In this document: one piece after another, positions 49,650-61,205 of the stretch
How positions within the stretch are numbered: position 1 is the stretch's first letter
Layout of the letters: every line of letters begins with the position of its first letter
Source of the DNA: an uncultured Actinomycetota bacterium
GTDB lineage: Bacteria > Actinomycetota > Thermoleophilia > RBG-16-64-13
DNA length: 64,000 nt
Reading direction: 5' to 3'
Assembly: GCA_963701105.1 (NCBI GenBank)
Contig: OY969565.1
Span: 1,014,998-1,078,997, forward strand
The notes under the pieces: model-generated
Told to the model about the DNA's origin: nothing
Database searches by the model: none
What the model saw: only the letters and a program-made list of their open reading frames with translations
Translations under genes and position numbers: made by a program

Positions 49650-52600
49650 CTATTGCCCTATCTGTTTCATCAGCTCATCAACAGCTTTCTTCAACTGTGC
49701 ATCTGTTCCTTTTGCACGGTAGTCCGGAGCATTCTCAACCACAAAATCAGGAGTAGCGGCTTCGTCTTCCATATCATTATTTGTCTTCTTTATATACCAT
49801 CCTCTGCCGGGCAGACGAACAAACGTACCATCAACCATACTTCTTCCGCCTGTGGAAATAACAGCACCGAAAGTTGGTTTACCGACAAGCTTCCCTATTC
49901 CCAAAGTCTGGTAAGCGTGAGAAAATATTTCCGCATTCGAATAACTGTTCTCATTGCACATAGCAATACTTGGTTTTATCCACGCTGTGTAAGGAAGCCT
50001 TTCACCAAGAGGATAATAACCTGTGAACTTAAGATGATCTTTTGCAAGGTTGTCTGCTGCACCTCGTCGGGATTGTGTACGCGTGCTGTTTGTAATTAAG
50101 GACAAGCATAAGATAATCCGTTGTCCAGCCGCCGCCGTTGTAGCGTACATCAACAACAATTGCATCTTTGCCGTTACCCGTTGCCTGAAGTTCTCTTTCA
50201 AATTCCTCAAAACTTTCCCAGCCCATTGCTTTTATATGAATATAGCCGATCCTTCCTTTTGAATATTCATCTGTTAATTTTTTCCTGTCCTGCACCCACT
50301 CATTATACAGAAGATCTTTTATATTATTTACGGGACGAATTATTACTTCTCTTGTTTTACCTTCTTTTGATTTAACTTCAAGCAGAACTCTTTCATCTGC
50401 TGTGTTTACAAACTTTGAGTAGAAATTAATATTTCCGCCGACATCTTCACCATTTACTTGTGTAATTACATCACCGGCTTCAAGTTTGCTTTCTGTTTTA
50501 TCTGCAGGACTTTCGGGTATAACCCGTTCAACAAGAATTCCGCCGTCTGCATTTCCTATTTCTATTCCGAGTAAGCCTGTAACTTCTTTCTGTGTTTCCT
50601 CACGGTCGCTTCCGTACATTCCCATATGGCTTGCGTTTATCTGCCCCAGCATAAAATTAAACATATACCTGAAGTCGCGGCTTGTTGAAGCAGCCATTAC
50701 CCAGGGTTTGTACTTCGCTTTAATTGCATTCCAGTCGTGACCATTAAAACCGGGATCATAAAAACCGTCTCTTATCATTCTCCACGATTCCTCAAAGATC
50801 TGTTCTTTTTCTTTTGAAAAATCTATCTGCATCTTTGCTGCATAAGAAAGACCTTCCTCTTTCTTTTTATCGAGATCAACTTTTGAAAGCTTACCTTCTC
50901 CTTTAAACAAATATATATTTTTTACATTCTTATCCGGGAGCAAAGAAGAATATGCATCGCTTCCTTTTATAATTGATTCAAAATCTTTTCCGTCCCACTT
51001 AATGCTGTAAAGCGAATAATCAAGTTTCTTTCCCTTACCCGATGAATAAGGAGCAGTAAAGTAAAATGTTTCACCGTCTGCGGAGATAATTACATTTCTT
51101 TCATCGCCGGGCATTGAAGTAACCTGGACTAATCTTTTATATATATCAGGGAAATCTATTTCAACTTCTTTTACTTTGGCTGAATCTTTATCTTTTTTCT
51201 TATCCTTTTTCTCTTCTTTCGGTTTTTCGGATTCATCCCAGTCCTGCTGAGTTTTTTCCCAATCGGCTTTCTTCAGCCAAACAAACCAGACATCCGCACT
51301 GTTGTTATTCCTGTCTGAAATAAATCCAAGTTTCGAACCATCAGGACTCCAGAACGGCTGACCGTCGTGCCTTGGATGCATACTTACATTTACTGCTTCG
51401 TGCGAGTTATCTGCAGCCTGTATAAAAATTTCATCATTGAAATAAAGATCGGTCTTTGAGTAAGCAAGCCATTTTGAATCAGGACTCCATGCTAAATCTA
51501 CCGGACCGGCCCAGTCATCAGATAATATTTTTTCATCGGAAAGCTTTCCGTCTTTATCAATCATTGCTGTAATAAGCTGACCGTTGCCGCGAAGGTAAGC
51601 GATCATCTTTCCGTCGGGCGACATTGATAATTCCGATTCATCTTTATCTGTGTTTGTTATTCTATCAACTTTATGCTTTAAGCTTTTAAATATGTTCGTT
51701 TCTTTTTTATCAGAAGAAGAAACAGCGTAAATATCAAACTCGCCTGCTTCATCCGAAGTAAAAACAAGAACGGAATCATTTACCCATTGCGGGTTTTCAT
51801 CTCTTGCAGGACTTTTGGTAAGGTTAACAGTAAGACTTTTATCTTTATCATTTTCTGTTACAAAAATATCTCCGCGTACTGCAAGAGCAATATATTTTCC
51901 GTTTGGTGAAAGTGAAAACTCCGATGCTTTTGAAGTGAGAGTTTTCCATTCATAAGGATCGAGCTTGTAATCCGATGCAACATCAATTGAAAGCTTGTTT
52001 AAGTTTGTTCCGTCTGAATTAATTGTGTAGAGATTCATATCCTTTTCCAGCACAAGCCTGTTTCCATTGCTGCTTACACTGAAATTACGCACGCCGTCAT
52101 CTGTAAAAGTTGTTACTGCACTTTCGGTTAATTTCTCACCGTTGGCACCGAGAGATATTTTATGAACATTGTATTTTCCGCTTGCAGAGCTGATGTAATA
52201 AATAGTGCGTTCGCCTCCCCATTCGGGTGAATAATCGTTGCCGGCAAAATCTGTAAGCTGAATATATTTTTTGTCTTTTGTGTCGTACAGCCAGATATCC
52301 CTGTTTGCAGAGCCGCGGTATTCTTCACGCGTAATACGGCAGTCTCCTTTTGTAAAAGCAATAAATCTTCCGTCGGGAGATTCTGCAGGATCGTAGCCGA
52401 ATGCATCGAGCGCTCTTTCAGGAGTTCCGCCGTTTGGTGATGCCGTATAAATTTCAGGCGACCATTCTACCGAGTTATAATTTCTTCGTAGTTGTAAAAT
52501 ATATTTTCCCGCTGTTGGACCAGCTTGATATAACATCGCCGGTTGAGTGGTAAGTAAGTCTTAAAGGAACTCCGCCGGCAGCATCCGCAACATAAATATC

Positions 52601-52867
52601 TGAGTTGCCGAACCTGTCACTGTTAAAAGCAATTTTATTTCCGTCCGGGCTCCACACACTATTAGTTTCTATTCCTTCGTGCTCGGTTATCCTGTCTGCT
52701 TTGCCGCCGGAAGAAGAAACAGTCCATATATCTCCCTGGTATGAAAAAGCAATCTTTGAGCCGTCTTTGTTAATTGAAGGATACAGAAGCAGAGGCTGGT
52801 TCTGCGGAAATGCGATTGAAGAAAGTAAAATAAGAACAGTGAAAAAGGCTAATGGTTTTAACATCAT
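49650..52867 (-). pseudogene. Tricorn-like protease (PD40/beta-propeller, PDZ and S41 peptidase domains), with two +1 frame shifts
   Basis: Three consecutive ORFs (52475-52867, 50029-52536, 49650-50210) together encode one protein of about 1070 aa: signal peptide, WSPDG repeats, PDZ (GDVITQVNGEDV), then the S41 core (DVRYNGGGW...NENSYSNAEIF). The breaks lie near 52481-52487 and 50066-50070. Confidence 0.8.
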
Positions 52868-52904
52868 TAACTCCCGGTATTTATGAGCGAATGAAATGAT
52901 ATTG

Positions 52905-52947
52905 TCATCCCGAACCTGCCTGCCGGCAGGCAGGCTCGTTTCAGGAT
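52905..52947. repeat. GC-rich palindromic element
   Basis: A perfect 20-nt palindrome CCTGCCTGCC|GGCAGGCAGG (52915-52934) is embedded in imperfect outer arms TCATCCCGAA...GTTTCAGGAT. It sits in the AT-rich spacer 38 nt upstream of the tricorn-like start. Confidence 0.6.
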
Positions 52948-53004
52948 CTTCCTAAAATTGAAATTCCAAAATCAATTGGATTACAAATATAAAATTTTCA
53001 TTAA

Positions 53005-53032
53005 AAATTGCGGAGTATAAAAGGATGAACGG
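53005..53032 (+). repeat. Short direct repeat, copy 1 (AAATTGCGGAGTATAAAAGGATGAACGG)
   Basis: Shares an identical 19-mer TTGCGGAGTATAAAAGGAT with 54647-54665. The two copies flank the SpoIIE-type gene. Confidence 0.7.
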
Positions 53033-53103
53033 TAATAAAATATTTTAAGTGAAAAGAAACTTGATCTCCATTTGCCATGACTATTATTTAATTCAAATGT
53101 TGC

Positions 53104-54522
53104 TTACCTGCTGTCCACAATTACAAAAGTGATATCATCCTGCTGCGGAGTTTTTTTATCCTGCCATAATTTTAATTCACTCAAAAATACTTTCCCTAAC
53201 TCATCTGCAGCAAGATTTTTGTTACTACTAATTAACTCATCTAAACGTTTATTTCCAAATTCATCTCCTGCAGCATTCCTGGATTCAGTAAGACCATCTG
53301 TATAAAGCAGGAAGCGTCATTGTGTTTTGAATGCAAAGCTACGCTCAGGATATTCTGTCTCTGTTGAAACTCCAAAAAGCAAACCATTGCTTTCGACCGA
53401 CTCAAGCTTTCCAGCAGAAGAATTCCAGTAAAGTAATGGCGGATGACCTGCTGCTGCATATCTGGCTAAATATTTTTCTGAATCAATATAAAGATAAGCG
53501 GCAGTTACAAACTGTCCGTGAAGCTGGCTGCCAAGTATTTTACCAAGCTGACTCAGTACTTCACCCGGATATTTTGCAGCATCTATAACCGACTGCATTG
53601 CAATTTTTATCATCGAGGCAATTAAAGCTGCAGGAACCCCATGACCCGAAACATCAGCAATAAGAAAACCGGCTTCGTGTGGACTGATCTCAATAAAATC
53701 ATAAAAATCACCTGCCACTGAAGTCATCGGGTAATAAGCAGCAGCTATATTTAATCCTTTTATCTCAGGTACATTAGCGGGAAGAATTGAAGTCTGTATC
53801 TGCCGGGCGGTCTCCATTTCATTTTCAATTGTAATCAGTTTTCGTTCATTAGTAAAGATTATGTTTGCTGCTGTGTAAGCCAGCGCTAAAAGTAAAACCG
53901 CAAAACCAAACCAGCCGGTAAATGGATAAGTCTCGTAACCAACGAGTCCTGATAAATTTGTGTACAGTGCTTCAACTATAAAAATAATTGTACCAACAGC
54001 CAGCACACCGCGGTTGGGAAGAACAAGGTACTTATCCGCTAATGATTTTACCGAAAGAACAACTACTAGAAATATCAGGGTTGCTGCTGCCAAAAGACTA
54101 TTGGGAAGCATAAAAGCTTGTGAATTACCTGTAATAAAAAACCAGGCGATACCCAGAACAGCGATGACCAATGCAGCAATGATCATAACTATAATTATTG
54201 TGCGGACTTTTTCCCTGGTTAAATACACCCACGTGAGCAGAGCAAAAACCAGTATCAAATAACTTATTATTACATCTGCTGCTGGAATAATGCTTTGAAT
54301 GAACTGGGGAAAGAATATATTAACTGCTTCCGATTCAATTAATAACCTTAACCCGTAAGCCCCGCTCCACGCTGCAAGCCATATTAATATCCTGATGTCT
54401 CTCCCGCGTCGCAGCAATGCAATAGAAACAGATACCAGTCCGACCAGTAAAAAGAATGTGCCGAAGATAATTTCCCCGAGCTGCTGACTGAGTTGACTAA
54501 TGTTCTGCATTTCATTTTGCAT
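53104..54522 (-). pseudogene. Membrane-bound SpoIIE/PP2C-type protein phosphatase with an in-frame TGA
   Basis: The 401-aa ORF has about 8 N-terminal TM helices and a PP2C domain (GDFYDF, ADVSGHG). It stops at TGA 53317-53319. The same frame continues RFLLYTDGLTESRNAAGDEFG...DDITFVIVDSR to TAA 53104-53106, which supplies the missing C-terminal PP2C motifs. Confidence 0.75.
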
Positions 54523-54642
54523 TTGTTAAGACTATTGTTTTCCCTGTTTTATATGCAGGTTTAAATGCTGCAACACTGTTTTTAATATTTAAACTAATTT
54601 ACTAAAAATCCGGATGTACTATCTTAGCCAATGTCTTAAACA

Positions 54643-54671
54643 AAATTTGCGGAGTATAAAAGGATAAACGG
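54643..54671 (+). repeat. Short direct repeat, copy 2 (AAATTTGCGGAGTATAAAAGGATAAACGG)
   Basis: See copy 1. The 13-mer TATAAAAGGATGA of copy 1 recurs at 55937-55949. Confidence 0.7.
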
Positions 54672-54712
54672 CGGGATAATAGTTTGAATGTAAAGATAAG
54701 ATTCTCTTTCAG

Positions 54713-54747
54713 CAGTGCAGCGCGGGTTCACATCCCCGGCTGCACTG
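54713..54747 (-). terminator. GC-rich hairpin downstream of the 85-aa gene
   Basis: CAGTGCAGC-g-CGGG ttcacatc CCCG-GCTGCACTG forms 13 bp with one bulge, 43 nt after the stop at 54790. There is no clear U-tract. Confidence 0.4.
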
Positions 54748-54789
54748 AGATCTGTCGGTTTTGGCTTATATGCTTTTATTAAACCTTGT

Positions 54790-55047
54790 TTAAATAGTTG
54801 CAACCGGCGCACTGATTACACCGGCTTTCTGAATATCTGCCTGCCTTGCGGGATCGTTCATCATTTTATCAAAAACTTCCGGACCGGGAGCTTCAAAGAT
54901 CATTGTTACATCATTAGGATTTTTAAGCGATGTGTAAAGCCCATTAAGCTTAACGCCCGCTTTTGCACGGTTGGGCTCATCTGTGTCAAAGACCTTTTTC
55001 CATTCTTTAAAGTTTTTAACTTCGTGCTGAACAATTACTGTAACCAT
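54790..55047 (-). CDS. Small hypothetical protein (possibly a ferredoxin-like alpha/beta fold)
   Basis: 85 aa. MVTVIVQHEVKNFKEWKKVFD... has protein-like composition. It is preferred over the overlapping 146-aa plus-strand ORF, which is Cys/Phe-rich and low-complexity. Confidence 0.5.
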   Translation of the reverse strand: MVTVIVQHEVKNFKEWKKVFDTDEPNRAKAGVKLNGLYTSLKNPNDVTMIFEAPGPEVFDKMMNDPARQADIQKAGVISAPVATI

Positions 55048-55161
55048 TTCTTAACCTTTCATATATTTATACATAAATTAAACGTGATGATACCACGCCG
55101 TTTACTAAGTTATATCCAATCCCGACATTATAAAGTTTGTTACCGCGACGATTAATAAACA

Positions 55162-55740
55162 CTAATTTTTTTTAGACCACGGCGGTACAATGTGGTTTGT
55201 CCTTGCATAAGCAATGGACTGACCAAGGTGCTCGTGCGGATGAGTTGCAGTAAGCATTAATATTTGTGCTTTTGTAAACTTTCCGAACGGCAGCTCTACT
55301 GTTGTATCGAAGTCGGTGGCGGTGTAGTTTGAAAGAAAATTTGCGGCATCGGCATAAGATTTTTTCAAAAAGGTCATTATTTCCGCTTTATCTGTCATTG
55401 TTTTTTCAAGGTCCTGGTTTTCAGTGCCGGGTATTAATTCTTTCGGCATAGGCAAGCCCAGGTAAGAAAGAAAAAAATAATTACTCATTGCAAGATGAAC
55501 ATAAACTTCACTGACTGACCTGACTCCCTCTTCAGGTCTCCAGCTGTAATCTTCTGAAGGCATAGCATCAGCAAGCTGAATAACCTTATCGAATGTCTCC
55601 TTCAGATCATCAGAAACTAATTTAACTAATGAATATGACGGGCTGCTGTCCGCTTTACCTGTCATATCCTGTGCGGACAATTTGAACACTACCGGACTGC
55701 AGAGCAAAAGCACAAATAGCACCAGAGTAAACCGCGGCAT
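55162..55740 (-). CDS. DinB family protein
   Basis: 192 aa with a signal-like N-terminus. His-triad-like positions are present (VYVHLAMSNY, THPHEHLGQ). Confidence 0.7.
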   Translation of the reverse strand: MPRFTLVLFVLLLCSPVVFKLSAQDMTGKADSSPSYSLVKLVSDDLKETFDKVIQLADAMPSEDYSWRPEEGVRSVSEVYVHLAMSNYFFLSYLGLPMPKELIPGTENQDLEKTMTDKAEIMTFLKKSYADAANFLSNYTATDFDTTVELPFGKFTKAQILMLTATHPHEHLGQSIAYARTNHIVPPWSKKN

Positions 55741-56048
55741 ATATCCTCCTAAAAATTACGGAGCAATTAATATTAAATGTTTATTATGGAATTGTTTGTA
55801 TAACGGAGAAAAAAATAGTAAAACGTTTGTTACTCTGCAACTATTCACCAGTGATTATTTTTATAAGTTATCAATTTTTTACCGGTATATGCTTTAGCGC
55901 ACTTGCTGTATGTTAACAAAAGAATAGTTGTAATATTATAAAAGGATGATGAGTTGGGTGATGGGTTGGGGAAATAAATTTCGTTTTTCTTTTACAATGA
56001 AATTTTTTTTAAATTTTTTTAATAATTCATTTGTGAAGGTTAAAATGA

Positions 56049-56396
56049 CTATTCATAATTTCTCATTTCATTTCTGACTTTCGTTAACAAATTAATCATT
56101 CCCTTTCTAGACTCATCTATAAACGAAATAAAAGCTTTCATTTCATTTTCCAACTCTTTATTTAATCTATCGATCTCTTTTTGGATATTATCCTTGTAGT
56201 CACTTTCTTGGAGATTAGTATTAAGATTGTGAAAAAAATCTAGAGAAGTTACTACCACTTTTAAATTTGATAAACATTTTAGAAAATTTATCATCCCTTC
56301 ATTGTTCCAAAATGAATCATCGATATCAAAGTACAATAGAAAAGAATTCGCAATTTGATTGGATGCTTCTTGGAGTTTATTTAATTGAATGGTCAA
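56049..56396 (-). CDS. Helical hypothetical protein, probably the 3' part of a larger disrupted gene
   Basis: 115 aa with a TTG start. The frame stays open upstream without a start codon. A second frame from about 56690 to 56400 encodes IDCSIFTVVIGKVLHLIQQSKQHKY...LGSIARLYEQAPVLEK with similar helical character. Confidence 0.35.
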   Translation of the reverse strand: MTIQLNKLQEASNQIANSFLLYFDIDDSFWNNEGMINFLKCLSNLKVVVTSLDFFHNLNTNLQESDYKDNIQKEIDRLNKELENEMKAFISFIDESRKGMINLLTKVRNEMRNYE

Positions 56397-56744
56397 AGAA
56401 TTATTAAGGGCATTAAATACATCTCTTTCGATACCTTTTCCAAAACAGGTGCTTGTTCATATAATCTGGCGATTGAACCAAGAAGATTTGCAGATAGATA
56501 CCACTGCGAAACTGCTGCATATGCCACTTCTAATTTCTTAGTAAAAAAAGTTTTCTGAATTGAGTATTTATGCTGTTTAGACTGCTGTATAAGATGGAGT
56601 ACTTTACCGATTACAACTGTGAATATTGAACAATCAATCTAACAAGGATCGCATCAAAATGTATTAATATTCGACTCCATTGTAGCACCAAGAATTTAAT
56701 GCTTAAGCTATCTTTAACTTTTATCAAAAAAGGTAGTTAATTAT

Positions 56745-57376
56745 CTAGTTTTCTATTACTACCGAAATTGTCAGGATTATTTTTTTATTTTTATTTTCTT
56801 TAAATAAAATAAATTCATTATAATTCTTTTTCCAAGAGTATCTTAAACGAAACTTATATATTGATGTTGCGAATATTAAACCGAGAATGAAAAATGAAAG
56901 ATTTAACCAAAGTAGAAATGTGGTGCAATAACAATCGCAATGGAAGGCTAAGATTATAAAAGAAATTAATCCACCAAACTTAGATTCAAAAACAAATGAT
57001 AGAAACCGCTTTGTGTCTCGGTTTTTATCTTTGAGTCTGATTCAAGTGTGTAATAAAATATATAGTACTCTTCTTCCACTTCTCTGTCCGTTTTGCCTCT
57101 GTATAATTCAGGATTGTTTTTTCGCATTAGAGTTGTTGGAAGATCCTTTACGATACCGCGAAATAATCTGGGATAATCTATTGAATATAGAGCTCCTCCA
57201 ATGAATATTGAAAACACAACGAAGATTATCCCACTTATAACATCATTATTGAAACATTTCTCATCTAACTCAAAACAATTCTTTAAGATAACATAAAAAA
57301 TTGAAGTTAAATAAAAGCCAGGGATAATAATTCTTAATATTTCATACAATTTGAAGGAAGACATAATACTATTCAT
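56745..57376 (-). pseudogene. Small multi-TM membrane protein, apparently frame-shifted; candidate effector of the TIR cluster
   Basis: ATG 57376 is preceded by AAGGAA. Two TM helices (ILRIIIPGFYLTSIFYVIL, VISGIIFVVFSIFIGGALY) are followed by a soluble loop, and the ORF stops at 56966 inside a hydrophobic stretch. The +2 frame continues LISFIILAFHCDCYCTTFLLWLNLSFFILGLIFATSIYKF... to TAG 56745-56747, adding two more TM helices. Confidence 0.5.
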
Positions 57377-57413
57377 ATTTATTTCCTTATTAACCAACTT
57401 TGAGTTTTCAAGA

Positions 57414-57905
57414 TTAAATATTATTTCTGATTTCTATTGCCTTATCAATCCAAGATTCAATGTTTTCTTTTATATGATCATAAATGTAAGTACTTGTTAT
57501 AAAAGGGGGATCATAACATTTAACAATTGATGACATAGTTTTATCTCCGATAGTGAAATCATCAAATGGATTACTTCCTTTGTTACATTGGTTCCCATTT
57601 ACATCTTTAAGATTATGAACGTAAACACGAAAAATTCTACGTCCATCATCCCAAGCTTTTTTGATTTCATATTTAATCCATTTACGCCCTGCTGTGTTTT
57701 CACCTACAAATACTATTACACAAGATTTCCCCAACATATTGTCACCTATCCATTTTTTTATAGCATCAACTCCACCATTTGTAACTTCCTCCCATTTGTT
57801 TGTTGTGGCGACACTATTCCCTTCAATTTTTCCCATATTTCTAATCTGTGAGGCTCTCCAGTTATCGGGTTTATAGTGAAAACTAGTAAAAACTTTTTTA
57901 GCCAT
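57414..57905 (-). CDS. TIR-like domain protein (DUF1863 / ThsB-like)
   Basis: 163 aa. KVFTSFHYKPDNWRASQIRN and ...VIVFVGENTAGRKWIKYEIKKA show the beta-A strand motif plus W-x-x-x-E, typical of MTH538/DUF1863 TIR-like proteins. Confidence 0.75.
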   Translation of the reverse strand: MAKKVFTSFHYKPDNWRASQIRNMGKIEGNSVATTNKWEEVTNGGVDAIKKWIGDNMLGKSCVIVFVGENTAGRKWIKYEIKKAWDDGRRIFRVYVHNLKDVNGNQCNKGSNPFDDFTIGDKTMSSIVKCYDPPFITSTYIYDHIKENIESWIDKAIEIRNNI

Positions 57906-57931
57906 ATTTTCTCTTAAAATATTTTAATCAA

Positions 57932-58108
57932 CTAATTTTTTAATATATAATCTGCAATATTATCCTTTATCTCAAATGCGATACCAATATATTGGTCAAT
58001 ATCTTTTTCAAAGTCATCCCAAGTAACACAAAAAATATATGAGAAATATCCATAATAAATAGCGGAACCATTACAATCAGATGTTTGAGGTTTTTTCAAA
58101 TTAAACAT
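57932..58108 (-). CDS. 58-aa ORF: separate small gene or detached C-terminus of the upstream TIR-like gene
   Basis: Below the ORF-track cutoff. It encodes MFNLKKPQTSDCNGSAIYYGYFSYIFCVTWDDFEKDIDQYIGIAFEIKDNIADYILKN. Its tail resembles the C-terminal helix of the 57414 protein (YDHIKENIESWIDKAIEI). Confidence 0.35.
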   Translation of the reverse strand: MFNLKKPQTSDCNGSAIYYGYFSYIFCVTWDDFEKDIDQYIGIAFEIKDNIADYILKN

Positions 58109-58119
58109 GTTATCTCTAA

Positions 58120-58581
58120 TTATTTTAAATAAGATAATGTGTTATAAAAAATACTATTGCAAGCTTCGTTATATGTCATAAAATAACTATAATTATTAAA
58201 TTCATCTGGCAGAACAACTAATAATACAGCATTTGTTTCGCTTGTTCTTTTATCTCTAGTTAATTCTCTAAGTGAGTATGAAATCTCCCAAGGAATCCAT
58301 TGATAAGATTCTGGTTTTCCTTCCTCTTTCATCCCTTTAGATATAAAGATGATAGTTACACTACTGTCGAATATCTTTCCTTTTAATTTTGTTGCAATTG
58401 TTTCATCTTTAAATTCTTCTAAACTCTCATTATCATTTTCTCCTGTGTATAAATGGTCCTCTTCATCCAGTAAATCTTGAAGTTTATCAACATAATCTCT
58501 AGCAGTTGTAAAAATATTAGTATTAAGCTTATAAACTTTAGAATCTGAATACTTATATGTTACAAAAATCTTTTTACCCAT
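58120..58581 (-). CDS. TIR-like domain protein (second ThsB-like paralogue)
   Basis: Start preferred at ATG 58581 (GGAG 8 nt upstream). The ORF track starts at 58653, abutting the upstream stop. [11 protein letters not shown]...[10 protein letters not shown]...[12 protein letters not shown] shows the TIR beta-A strand and W-x-x-x-E motif. Confidence 0.65.
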
Positions 58582-58653
58582 TTTTTTTCTCCATGAATTA
58601 TAACCACATTTTTCTGAGCAAATCCTTAAAAAGTGACAAATAAGTATATTCAT

Positions 58654-59190
58654 TTAAAAGCGAACATCCGGATGAGGAATAATACGATCATAAATCAACC
58701 TGGCAGCAGCACCAGTACTGGCAACAGGTAAAATTAGCGATCCAGGATGTGATAGTTTAAACAAATCAAATTCTTTTTCTACTCCTTCCATTCCACCAAT
58801 AAAGATGCCTACCTTGAAGTCATTATCTTCAAACATTTTTTTTCTCATTGACATCAAACTACTTTCCAAATCATTTTTTTCCGGAATTATAACGATATCT
58901 TCAAAATCAAAATTATCATCTGGGAAATGTTCACGATAAAAATTAGATTGATATATAGTTAAGTGTTCTTTTAAACTTACGTCAAGATTATTCATGACAT
59001 ATCTGATCAGAGGTGTGATTGAAGGATGTCCACCCCGAATTAATTTTGCACGTGGAATTACTATACTTGCCAATGCTCTTATTGAATCTCTTATAGCAAT
59101 GATATCTGCAGTGTTATAATATTTTTTATCCCGCTTTGGATCAGGTATACTTGCAGATAAAAATATTTTATTTAAATATTCCTTAGCCAC
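58654..59190 (-). CDS. Stand-alone SLOG/LOG-like Rossmannoid nucleotide-binding protein
   Basis: 178 aa. KIFLSASIPDP, RGGHPSITPL and VGIFIGGMEGVEKEF (a GGxxGxxxE motif as in LOG/SLOG) are present, with LPVASTGAAA. There is a 19-nt overlap with the upstream TIR gene. The assignment is motif-based only. Confidence 0.55.
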   Translation of the reverse strand: MAKEYLNKIFLSASIPDPKRDKKYYNTADIIAIRDSIRALASIVIPRAKLIRGGHPSITPLIRYVMNNLDVSLKEHLTIYQSNFYREHFPDDNFDFEDIVIIPEKNDLESSLMSMRKKMFEDNDFKVGIFIGGMEGVEKEFDLFKLSHPGSLILPVASTGAAARLIYDRIIPHPDVRF

Positions 59191-60086
59191 TTCTCTCTTT
59201 CAAAAAATTTAATACTACGAACTGGTAAATATTTATCTAACCAATCAAGATGGTCCAACCATTTTTTTCGAATATTTATATGATCAAACAATAAAAAAAT
59301 CTCTTTTATTTTTTTTGATTTTATTTGGTTTACTAATTCTTCTGATTGGTTGTACGTAAAAGCTTGAGGAATTCCAATAGTCGGAATAATTAAAAATTGC
59401 TCCGTATTGTTTTTTTTAATAACTAGTAATTTATTTGCTTGAAGTGTGATCTTCACTTTGAGTTTTTTAGCTGAATTTATAAATTCATTTGTGATATTTG
59501 ATTGTCGAGCCATCAGACTTCTAGCTCTTAAAGATTCAACCTGAGAAATTAATTTCCTAAGAGTAGTTTCAGTGGGATAACTATCTTTATCAGAATACAA
59601 TTTATTACCAAAACTATTAATTATCAGTTTATATGGTATACTCAATTTTGCAAAGTCTTCAAGATTATGTTTAGGCCATACAATTTGAAGAATACCAATA
59701 GACATTGAATTTGCCTTAGCAAGTTCCTGTTTTGTCCAATTACTGTCTAAGAATCCTGGCGTATTAAGCAAAACAACAACATCAGTATCGGTTAGCCTAT
59801 GCCACAATTCTTCCTGAAATACGTCAGTTGGCCTAACGCTATGAGTATCTAAAAATACATCAAACCCCGAAGCTTCTAATTTTTCGAACAGTTGAATGGC
59901 AACTAATCTTGATTCATTTCTACGATAGCTAATAAATATTCTTCGAGCAATTCTAAGTAAACCAAAACCTTCCAAAATGGAACTAACTACGGATTCAAAA
60001 TTGACAGTTGTTTTTAACTCTATTCCATTAATCTCGTATAAGAGACTTGGTACAGAATTTCTAAAATCCTTTGAAATCATGAACAA
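59172..60086 (-). CDS. TIR domain protein with uncharacterised C-terminal domain of about 130 aa
   Basis: 304 aa. RIFISYRRNESRLVAIQLFEKLEASGFDVFLD...DVVVLLNTPGFLDSNWTKQELAKA is a canonical TIR. The start is TTG 60086 or ATG 60080. Confidence 0.8.
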   Translation of the reverse strand: MFMISKDFRNSVPSLLYEINGIELKTTVNFESVVSSILEGFGLLRIARRIFISYRRNESRLVAIQLFEKLEASGFDVFLDTHSVRPTDVFQEELWHRLTDTDVVVLLNTPGFLDSNWTKQELAKANSMSIGILQIVWPKHNLEDFAKLSIPYKLIINSFGNKLYSDKDSYPTETTLRKLISQVESLRARSLMARQSNITNEFINSAKKLKVKITLQANKLLVIKKNNTEQFLIIPTIGIPQAFTYNQSEELVNQIKSKKIKEIFLLFDHINIRKKWLDHLDWLDKYLPVRSIKFFEREKWLRNI

Positions 60087-60321
60087 CAGGGAGTACTAAT
60101 ACAGAATCATTTAGTAGCATTCTCAAACTAATAATATCATTATGTATTCCTGCATTTTTGCCAAAATATAAACAGAATGAAGGCCGGTTTTTTTTATAAT
60201 AATTATTGATATTATTTCTATCAAGAACAATTATGGAATTTTTATCAATCTCTAATTCATTAATATGTTTAAAAAAAACTTTTAGTAATTCAGATCGAAA
60301 GGGAATATAATCTCCCAACAA
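60061..60321 (-). CDS. Hypothetical 86-aa ORF, possibly the frame-shifted N-terminus of the TIR protein
   Basis: Only a TTG start is available, with no obvious SD. It overlaps the 59172-60086 ORF by 26 nt in the +1 relation. Confidence 0.3.
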   Translation of the reverse strand: MLGDYIPFRSELLKVFFKHINELEIDKNSIIVLDRNNINNYYKKNRPSFCLYFGKNAGIHNDIISLRMLLNDSVLVLPVVHDFKGF

Positions 60322-60362
60322 AAATTAATTGATACTTATATATCATATAATATTCATTAGTG

Positions 60363-60956
60363 TTATTGCCATAACCATTGCTTCAATGGAGTAATATATC
60401 TTATTCCTTCTTTATTTCTGGGTTTACAAAAATAGTACCCTGGAGCAATCAATTCATTTGTACTCACGAATTTATTATTTCCGTTTTCATAATCAATACT
60501 TGGATAGATTTGAAGATATTCATTACCTTTATAATAAGAATCTAGACTATCTTGATCCTTAATTGGTAGAATTGCTATATGGTTTGGAAATTTGTATGTA
60601 TCTCCAATTCCTAATTCCCAGTTACACCAATATGACTCAATAGCATTGTTAGTAGCAATAAAAATAAATTTATTACAAAAGTCGATAACTTCTTTTATTC
60701 TTAATGCCGTATCGCTTGAAGCCTGAGATGGTAATTTATTATCCATAATATCTATATATGTATTTACACCTATTTTTTTTAACAAACCAATTATACCTCT
60801 GAGTTCATTAACATCATCATGATTGTGAGATAAAAAAACTGCCGGAATATAAGACGACTCATATCTAGAACTAAATTTTTGAGAGGCTTTCAGTGATTCG
60901 TTAATGAATGATTCCGTAACTCTATTGTCATCAAAATGCCCACGTTCAAAAATCAT
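60363..60956 (-). CDS. TIR domain protein (first gene of the array)
   Basis: 197 aa. PAVFLSHNHDDVNELRGIIGLLKKIGVNTYID...FIFIATNNAIESYWCNWELG is the bacterial TIR_2-type pattern. Confidence 0.8.
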   Translation of the reverse strand: MIFERGHFDDNRVTESFINESLKASQKFSSRYESSYIPAVFLSHNHDDVNELRGIIGLLKKIGVNTYIDIMDNKLPSQASSDTALRIKEVIDFCNKFIFIATNNAIESYWCNWELGIGDTYKFPNHIAILPIKDQDSLDSYYKGNEYLQIYPSIDYENGNNKFVSTNELIAPGYYFCKPRNKEGIRYITPLKQWLWQ

Positions 60957-61205
60957 GTGATATTAATTTTTTTTATGAAAAACAAAAATGTATTTGGATG
61001 TAAAGTTTTTTAATTTCGCGGGACCCTTGAGAAAGCACATCAGCAATAATACCCCGTGAAAGCGCCCGGGCAGCAACCTCCGGGAGGTTACTCATCATAA
61101 TTTCAATCACCGGCTAAAATACTCCAAATAAAGTAAACAGGCAATAAGAAAATTCAAAAGTAATAAAGGAATTAGGAAGCTGGATTGATGAGAAGAATAC
61201 ATAAC

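Follow-up and report, generated by a model that had tools for sequence, protein, structure and literature searches.

What does a SLOG-domain protein do when it stands alone, with no output domain, in the middle of an array of TIR genes? The question is raised by an open reading frame (ORF) in 64,000 nucleotides (nt) of DNA from an uncultured Actinomycetota bacterium of the Thermoleophilia (contig OY969565.1 of assembly GCA_963701105.1, positions 1,014,998 to 1,078,997, forward strand); this whole stretch is called here the window, and the coordinates given are its own. Judged by its sequence, the ORF is thcA, which in type III Thoeris anti-phage systems encodes a stand-alone protein with a SLOG domain. 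In the best explanation we can offer, which is held with moderate confidence, ThcA senses a TIR-made nucleotide within a module formed with ThcB4, the TIR protein encoded directly upstream. The family as such is already named and published, as LD_cluster3 in Pfam, as ThcA in NCBIfam and as the ThsD of type III Thoeris. An initial annotation of the window had arrived at the core of this identification, while missing both the prior description as type III Thoeris and the frameshifts of the assembly. The gene in question is:

58654..59190, minus strand: thcA as assembled (ThsD in Yirmiya et al. 2025), 178 amino acids (aa), GTG start; from the ORF list, PF18180 and NF058525.1.

The product of thcA matched Pfam PF18180, LD_cluster3 ("SLOG cluster3 family"), with E 7.8e-54 and 182.4 bits (gathering threshold, 25 bits), and the NCBIfam equivalog NF058525.1 ("Thoeris type III anti-phage system protein ThcA") with 223.1 bits and E 2.2e-66 over model positions 1-163 of 184 (curated cut-off, 110 bits). 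With such an LD_cluster3 match, and with its homologues in the protein collection numbering more than 2,300, thcA is far from a chance ORF. The stand-alone SLOG-superfamily protein proposed in the initial annotation is thus confirmed by both models, and so is the absence of a fused output domain: the product is a single 178-aa domain with no SIR2 match in Pfam, encoded within the TIR array. The resemblance to other SLOG clades was limited to a weak match to the tail of STALD (20.5 bits, below the Pfam threshold of 24 bits, residues 133-171 only) and to PADLOC ThsA models at E 0.006-0.03. A search of the PDB with a single sequence returned noise only (IMPDH, E 0.1), tblastn against phage genomes gave no match, Foldseek against viral structures gave weak DprA-like and SLOG matches only, and a literature search on the names ThcA and ThcB4 returned cannabinoid and thyroid-cancer papers only.

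The three motifs on which the first reading had relied, KIFLSASIP, GGHP and IGGMEGVEKE, are present and, in a family alignment of 65 sequences, occupy columns that are invariant or nearly so, the conserved positions being F10, S14, P16, G53, G54, H55, P56, G132, G133, M134, G136 and E140. The invariant polar residues of the same alignment include R20, H55, T59, Q81, S82, N93, S111, R116 and E140. Compared to the LOG signature PGGxGTxxE, the motif IGGMEGVEKE has one residue more and carries Val where Thr stands. No match to Pfam LOG (Lysine_decarbox) was found in window ThcA at E ≤ 1, and no Pfam match to DprA. On these absent matches, together with the defence-island setting, a housekeeping LOG or DprA identity was rejected, and an unrelated fold did not emerge either. 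The island (56000-61000) has a guanine-plus-cytosine (GC) content of 27-31%, against 37-42% in the flanking housekeeping region, which is consistent with horizontal acquisition; no tRNA gene was found anywhere in the 64-kb window.

Besides thcA, the island holds four TIR genes, one of them thcB4:

59172..60346, minus strand: thcB4 (TIR gene B), a TIR protein of ~390 aa; NF058526.1, PADLOC PDLC00434, homologue of TIR4 of Pseudomonas aeruginosa L0872.
60363..60956, minus strand: accessory TIR gene A, ThsB-type, 197 aa, intact; Pfam TIR_2, PADLOC ThsB PDLC00423 (E 8e-59), homologue of L0872 TIR1.
57924..58581 (end approximate), minus strand: accessory TIR gene C, ThsB-type, ~219 aa; PADLOC PDLC00428.
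57414..57905, minus strand: accessory TIR gene D, ThsB_TIR, 163 aa, intact; Pfam ThsB_TIR (E 6.8e-25), PADLOC PDLC00433 (E 2.3e-70), homologue of L0872 TIR2.

Two of these genes are broken in the window. Frameshifts at about 60315 and about 60073 reduce thcB4 to an N-terminal stub and two ORFs, of 86 and 304 aa. The ThcB4 model NF058526.1 (cut-off, 220 bits) matched the 304-aa ORF with 351 bits at positions 86-371 of 375, the 86-aa ORF (60061-60321) covers model positions 6-88, and the N-terminal piece, MIYKYQLIFVG, lies in yet another, third frame; the PADLOC ThsB match PDLC00434 is divided across the same ORFs. TIR gene C is split by 1-nt deletions near 58137 and 57947, with PDLC00428 positions 1-145 and 159-215 on two separate ORFs, and its product is 36% identical to a type IX Thoeris TIR.

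Type III Thoeris was reportedly first described by van den Berg et al. in 2024 (Cell Host & Microbe), in P. aeruginosa L0872. It is presented as a combination of multiple TIR proteins with a SLOG-domain effector, there renamed ThsD, in the preprint by Yirmiya et al. (bioRxiv 10.64898/2025.12.03.692087), where the sequences of the four TIR domains of the L0872 reference system are listed in Table S1. When these were compared with the window by BLASTP, TIR1 matched TIR gene A (44% identity, E 3.5e-25), TIR2 matched TIR gene D (40%, E 4e-20) and TIR4 matched ThcB4 (52%, E 6e-34), while TIR3 had no close counterpart. The two systems thus share a set of several TIR genes with a stand-alone SLOG protein, three of the TIR genes being homologous, and the window passes both the ThcA and the ThcB4 model. 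They differ in the host, in TIR gene C, which is nearer to a type IX TIR than to L0872 TIR3, and in the frameshifts that the window carries in thcA, thcB4 and TIR gene C. The link between window ThcA and the L0872 SLOG protein is drawn through the TIR genes and the NCBIfam models. A second link comes from the island of Sediminibacterium magnilacihabitans DSM 22423, for which six ThsB, ThsA, ThsD and a DUF2188 protein are listed (10.64898/2025.12.03.692087). In our set this island holds six TIR genes, a SIR2-STALD ThsA, the DUF2188 protein and one LD_cluster3 SLOG protein; as the sole ThsD candidate remaining, the latter indicates that the published ThsD is the LD_cluster3 family.

Concerning the relationship of thcA to its neighbours, 81 loci were compared, namely 80 genome loci and one metagenome contig (L001). 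Most of the closest genome homologues came from Bacteroidota and a few from Ignavibacteria. ThcB4 homologues were found in 80 of the 81 loci, and in all 80 in which both genes could be placed thcB4 stands directly upstream of the SLOG gene. The overlap of 19 nt noted in the initial annotation, by which the start of the 178-aa ORF runs into the 3′ end of the upstream TIR ORF (59172-60086), is present, and of the 80 loci with both genes placed, 62 show precisely this length of overlap. Among those 62 the start codon is ATG in 60; the GTG of the window is attributable to a synonymous-context change in thcB4. In conjugative plasmids of enterobacteria, a gap of 2 nt separates the two genes. The conserved overlap couples thcA to thcB4 in translation, as the initial annotation had stated. 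The other TIR genes are less constant, with homologues of A in 73, of D in 58 and of C in 45 of the 81 loci, and their number and order vary. No other gene family is conserved beside the pair in these loci, and the neighbours differ from one locus to another (type I restriction-modification, GmrSD, Schlafen/AlbA and HNH genes). ThcB4-ThcA is therefore the fixed core of the system, with variable accessory TIR genes around it.

A profile search of 1.84 billion representative proteins yielded 1,372 relatives, and among them three fusions that carry both equivalog domains, P0243 (600 aa), P0356 (572 aa) and P0263 (735 aa). The fusions occur in several lineages, and each is represented by a number of differing sequences of independent source and contig, so these fusions are not one-off artefacts. 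They bear on a further interpretation, in which ThcA is a buffer or regulator that either sequesters the basal TIR product, setting an activation threshold, or restrains ThcB4. A ligand-binding domain with no output domain would suit such a role, and mutations of the SLOG pocket of ThsA cause auto-activity, so that SLOG domains can act as brakes (PMC10022894). The strict one-to-one coupling and the natural fusion with ThcB4 fit a subunit better than a free sponge, and most loci hold no other recognisable effector to be buffered; we regard a buffering role as quite improbable.

The fold of ThcA was predicted with AlphaFold2 for the window protein (178 aa) and for a full-length homologue, P0012 (196 aa), with predicted local distance difference test (pLDDT) values of 90.9 and 92.5. 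In both models β-strands alternate with helices, as in a Rossmannoid fold. In Foldseek searches of the PDB, the top match of the window model was BcThsA with an analogue of 3′-cyclic ADP-ribose (3′cADPR) (8btp; E 1e-3, probability 1.0, template-modelling (TM) score 0.55), followed by EcThsA, SeThsA and then DprA. The full-length homologue matched DprA, the molybdenum cofactor (Moco) carrier protein, a type-I LOG with adenosine monophosphate (5zbl) and PpnN (9hs2). The highest TM-scores of all matches, 0.53-0.56, were those of DprA. The SLOG domain of ThsA, DprA, LOG, PpnN and the Moco carrier protein are usually grouped together as LOG/DprA (SLOG) proteins. ThcA is accordingly modelled as a SLOG Rossmannoid fold, nearest to the ThsA SLOG domain and DprA, and, since the E-values are weak, as a divergent SLOG clade outside STALD, LOG and DprA.

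A family profile compared with PDB sequences aligned ThcA 135-140 (eGVxxE) with BcThsA 398-403 (KGVQSE), thereby pairing the invariant G136 and E140 with G399 and E403. In the structure of BcThsA with 3′cADPR, E403 binds the distal ribose hydroxyls and the backbone of G399 binds the diphosphate (10.1101/2022.05.07.491051). On the secondary-structure map of ThcA, most of the invariant residues are placed where β-strands end or, just after, in loops and helix starts, S111 and R116 being within a helix. Strand-end loops are the usual nucleotide-binding face of Rossmannoid folds, and the invariant residues of ThcA would accordingly lie on a putative nucleotide-binding face. The kinship to the ligand-sensing SLOG domain of ThsA, suspected from the motifs alone, is thus borne out by the Foldseek ranking of the three ThsA proteins and by the G399/E403 alignment.

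The comparison with the known SLOG proteins can be completed as follows. ThsA of type I Thoeris (PDB 6LHX, 8BTP, 7UXT) provides the top structural matches of the window model and shares with ThcA the G...E motif and ThsB-type TIR partners, but window ThcA has no SIR2 domain, belongs to LD_cluster3 rather than STALD and is only 16-22% identical in sequence. The N-glycosidases LOG and PpnN share the SLOG Rossmannoid fold (TM-score about 0.45-0.55) and a glycine-rich loop followed by a conserved Glu, but ThcA has no LOG match in Pfam, reads GGMEGVxxE instead of PGGxGTxxE and is encoded in a defence island. DprA/Smf gives the highest TM-scores, but its Pfam match and any competence context are missing, and thcA is always paired with a TIR gene.

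This structural kinship allows for a different role, in which ThcA would act as the effector itself, or as an enzyme that processes the signal, of the LOG-like N-glycosidase kind, with ThcB4 as its dedicated signal synthase. ThcA loaded with the TIR product would then hydrolyse a nucleotide pool, or it would convert the TIR product into an active or inactive signal; a LOG-like enzyme acting on the signal was also the second reading of the initial annotation. The SLOG superfamily does include real N-glycosidases, and LOG (5zbl) and PpnN (9hs2) are among the structural matches; moreover, the number of invariant polar residues in ThcA is unusually high. SLOG domains have been proposed by Aravind's group to cleave ribosyl N-glycosidic bonds of ADP-ribose (ADPR) derivatives (PMC9503650), and the preprint by Yirmiya et al. 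both makes the SLOG protein the effector of type III in its nomenclature and describes a nucleotide-hydrolase effector in type VIII Thoeris, next to membrane effectors in other types (10.64898/2025.12.03.692087). On the other hand, the Pfam LOG match is absent, the LOG signature is altered by an extra residue and the loss of its Thr, and the best structural matches of the window model are the non-catalytic SLOG domains of ThsA. The Glu shared with LOG is a pure ligand contact in ThsA and hence no argument for catalysis. Taken together, we consider such an effector or enzyme rather unlikely, in either of its two forms.

In the interpretation that we prefer, ThcA as a sensor within the ThcB4-ThcA module, infection would lead a variable ThsB-type TIR protein, namely A, C or D, to make an ADPR-derived nucleotide from nicotinamide adenine dinucleotide (NAD+). 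ThcA would bind this nucleotide in its SLOG pocket and, as the sensor subunit of the two-protein module, would switch on the output, which most likely would be the NAD+-consuming TIR domain of ThcB4, leading to abortive infection. Compared with the Thoeris effectors of TIR-SLOG and SIR2-SLOG type, the module would be a split form. The accessory TIR proteins would be infection sensors; their genes vary in number and order, as do the multiple sensor thsB genes of type I Thoeris (10.1101/2021.01.06.425286). In ThcB4, the catalytic-type W..E motif of the TIR domain (E207 in the numbering of the L002 protein) is at least 95% conserved among 75 orthologues. A parallel is offered by ThsJ, the type IX effector, in which TIR and SLOG form one unit, as in the natural ThcB4-ThcA fusions (572-735 aa). 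Unlike in ThsJ, the two are encoded by separate, overlapping genes in the window and in most genomes, and ThcB4 is extended at both the N- and the C-terminus by conserved regions that no Pfam model matches. When 3′cADPR made by the type IX TIR was added to the medium, the type IX effector was not activated. The more specific proposal, that ThcA is the receptor and the TIR domain of ThcB4 the executioner, by NAD+ depletion, rather than a signal synthase, is put forward tentatively, as one possibility that is by itself doubtful. Enzymatic editing of the TIR product into a new signal by ThcA is less likely than this split effector.

Several observations weigh against our interpretation. The Foldseek E-values of the ThcA models, 1e-3 to 1e-2, are weak, and the equivalence of ligand contacts between ThcA and ThsA comes from a sub-threshold hidden Markov model alignment (E 0.05-0.35), which denotes resemblance, not membership. 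The published label ThsD makes the SLOG protein itself, not ThcB4, the effector, and the same preprint describes type III signalling as uncharacterised (10.64898/2025.12.03.692087). The conserved Glu of ThcB4 fits a signal-producing TIR as well as an effector TIR, and this protein has further conserved terminal regions outside any Pfam match. Some islands also contain a distinct effector of SLOG-patatin or SIR2-SLOG type, to which ThcB4-ThcA could be accessory. Finally, the thcA copy of the window may be non-functional, owing to the damage described in the following paragraphs.

Nearly all ThcA homologues have 189-199 aa and end in a helix, ..RLxNDYAYMALFRDLLxxYI. By this full-length standard the window protein is incomplete, as it stops 18 residues short. 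The helix is in frame in 80 orthologues, while in the window a 1-nt frameshift in the T run CGCTTTTAAATG places it beyond the stop, in the -1 frame:

about 58598-58660, minus strand: displaced 3′ end of thcA with the conserved C-terminal helix, located by three-frame translation against the homologue alignment.

The stop of thcA had appeared to abut the next TIR-like ORF. This is an artefact, as the 3′ end of thcA is frameshifted and the next ORF is over-extended; the true start of that TIR gene is Met25 of the listed ORF, at about 58581, where the PADLOC ThsB model begins. A programmed frameshift at TTTTAAA, giving access to the helix, was judged by eye to be unlikely: there is no canonical X XXY YYZ heptamer in the zero frame, and the 80 orthologues need no shift. 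In addition, codon 52 of the window gene (59035-59037) is CGG, for Arg, at a position where the family has Trp (TGG, in the motif LIWGGHP) with at least 90% conservation; this Arg may reflect either a genuine substitution or an erroneous base.

To these defects the contig L001 (ENA ERZ25039549 contig_30042) is relevant, an independent metagenome contig that was compared with window positions 52887-61195. The two are 97.8% identical over 8.3 kb with 27 indels, and L001 has the Trp at codon 52. Different genes are broken in each:

thcB4: two frameshifts in the window; in L001 frameshifted near the 5′ end in a different manner and called as 315 aa.
TIR gene C: frameshifted in the window; intact in L001, 219 aa.
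TIR gene A: intact in the window; broken in L001.
DinB: intact in the window; C-terminus out of frame in L001.
SpoIIE phosphatase: truncated in the window (SpoIIE model positions 3-121 of 192); split in two genes in L001.

At the 5′ end of thcB4 (about 60315) the window and L001 have different, equally frame-breaking indel states at one site. The frameshifts common to both are those of thcA and of an adjacent membrane gene only, and they are homopolymer undercounts, T5 to T4 and G3 to G2. One-base homopolymer undercounts are typical of systematic long-read errors. Housekeeping genes of the window are broken too, within 49650-52867 (minus strand) and 53317-54522, namely a tricorn-like S41 protease, which is distributed over three ORFs that overlap, model positions 1-61 of Peptidase_S41 being on one and 81-165 on another, and a membrane SpoIIE phosphatase. 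An alternative is that the locus is a decaying, non-functional remnant, with genuine mutations behind the W52R change as well as behind the frameshifts of the membrane gene, thcA, thcB4 and TIR gene C. In its favour, an independent contig of 97.8% identity shares the thcA and membrane-gene frameshifts, and a highly conserved Trp has been replaced. Against it, the housekeeping genes are damaged as well, with the protease in three pieces and the phosphatase truncated, the two contigs break different genes and differ in the indel state at the 5′ end of thcB4, and both common frameshifts are homopolymer undercounts. Because of the damage to different genes and to housekeeping genes and of the undercounts, systematic sequencing error is favoured over decay, and an error of sequencing or assembly is the likelier origin of the indels in thcA, thcB4 and TIR gene C; decay of the locus is the less probable account, to which we nevertheless give appreciable weight.

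The membrane gene deserves separate consideration, as its product had been suggested in the initial annotation as the partner through which ThcA acts:

56745..57376, minus strand: Csx27-like gene for a four-transmembrane protein, not a conserved component of the system; weak PADLOC/NCBIfam Csx27/tm_4 matches.

The suggestion that ThcA senses the TIR product and acts through this protein had some appeal, as the genes are adjacent and on the same strand, the protein resembles Csx27, an accessory protein of CRISPR VI-B, and membrane effectors exist in other Thoeris types according to the preprint cited above. Nevertheless, none of the 80 genome loci has the gene, and among the 81 ThcA loci it occurs only in L001. 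In the window and in L001 alike it is frameshifted near 56970, at a GGG to GG site. Its only intact relative, P0413 (208 aa, 78% identical, aligned across the frameshift), is encoded at L084 8001-8627 beside a fragment of a HerA-like ATPase and a DUF5131 gene, with no TIR genes there. For want of co-occurrence with ThcA loci, this partnership is effectively refuted, and we rate it as very improbable. The assignment of the protein as a SLATT domain was also discarded, there being no SLATT match in Pfam and only the weak Csx27/tm_4 similarity. Downstream of the membrane gene there are two small ORFs on the minus strand, 56049-56396 and 56393-56727, with no family match; one encodes 115 aa, charged and repetitive in the C-terminal half, and the other is what remains of an ORF of 111 aa, complete in L001. 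Among the 81 loci they were found only in L001.

Some other arrangements were observed in the course of the comparison. In locus L066, thcB4-thcA and the accessory TIR genes interrupt an operon for type I restriction-modification, where they stand between hsdM/hsdS and hsdR together with a Schlafen/AlbA gene. At the equivalent position, L069 has a GmrSD gene. Gene sizes and order like those of L066 were seen in L037, L056-L058, L065, L067, L069, L070, L078 and L079, mostly from Flavobacteriia, where for most of these loci the likeness is one of size and order, the Pfam assignment being that of L066. In L044 (9045-12071), adjoining type III Thoeris, there is a four-gene cassette of MazG_C, the helical domain of a 5-hydroxymethyldeoxyuridine (5-hmdU) DNA kinase (HMUDK_hel), a ThsB-type TIR gene and Nmad2. 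By gene size and order (Pfam on L044 only), the same cassette is found in L016, L043, L048, L060, L072, L073 and L074; it may be a separate TIR-containing module tied to nucleotide modification.

Two further architectures concern SLOG domains outside the pair. The protein P0242 and its cluster members P0411 and P0412 (392-397 aa) combine a ThcA-type SLOG with a response-regulator receiver domain and a zinc ribbon; one source name is CheY-like protein, and the architecture is unlike Thoeris. On a large conjugative plasmid of E. coli (NZ_CP034659.1; L082 2297-3913), a gene annotated as "CBASS cGAMP-activated phospholipase", after CBASS, an anti-phage signalling system based on cyclic oligonucleotides, is actually composed of a SLOG domain (LD_cluster2) and a patatin domain, and it lies amid TIR genes, adjoining thcB4-thcA. 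A gene with the same annotation and position (domains by annotation) is present in Klebsiella variicola pKLVA-1 (L083), likewise a large conjugative plasmid. The SLOG-patatin protein of the E. coli plasmid is probably an effector of a TIR signal rather than a CBASS effector.

As for the window gene itself, it is an ordinary, possibly mis-assembled orthologue, to be annotated as ThcA together with ThcB4 and three accessory ThsB-type TIR genes. For the family, the fixed core, the 19-nt overlap, the recurrent fusions, the variable TIR genes and the lack of any other conserved effector point to ThcB4-ThcA as one functional unit. If this unit is indeed a split effector, it would provide a mechanism for type III Thoeris and would explain how its SLOG "effector" can be without an output domain.

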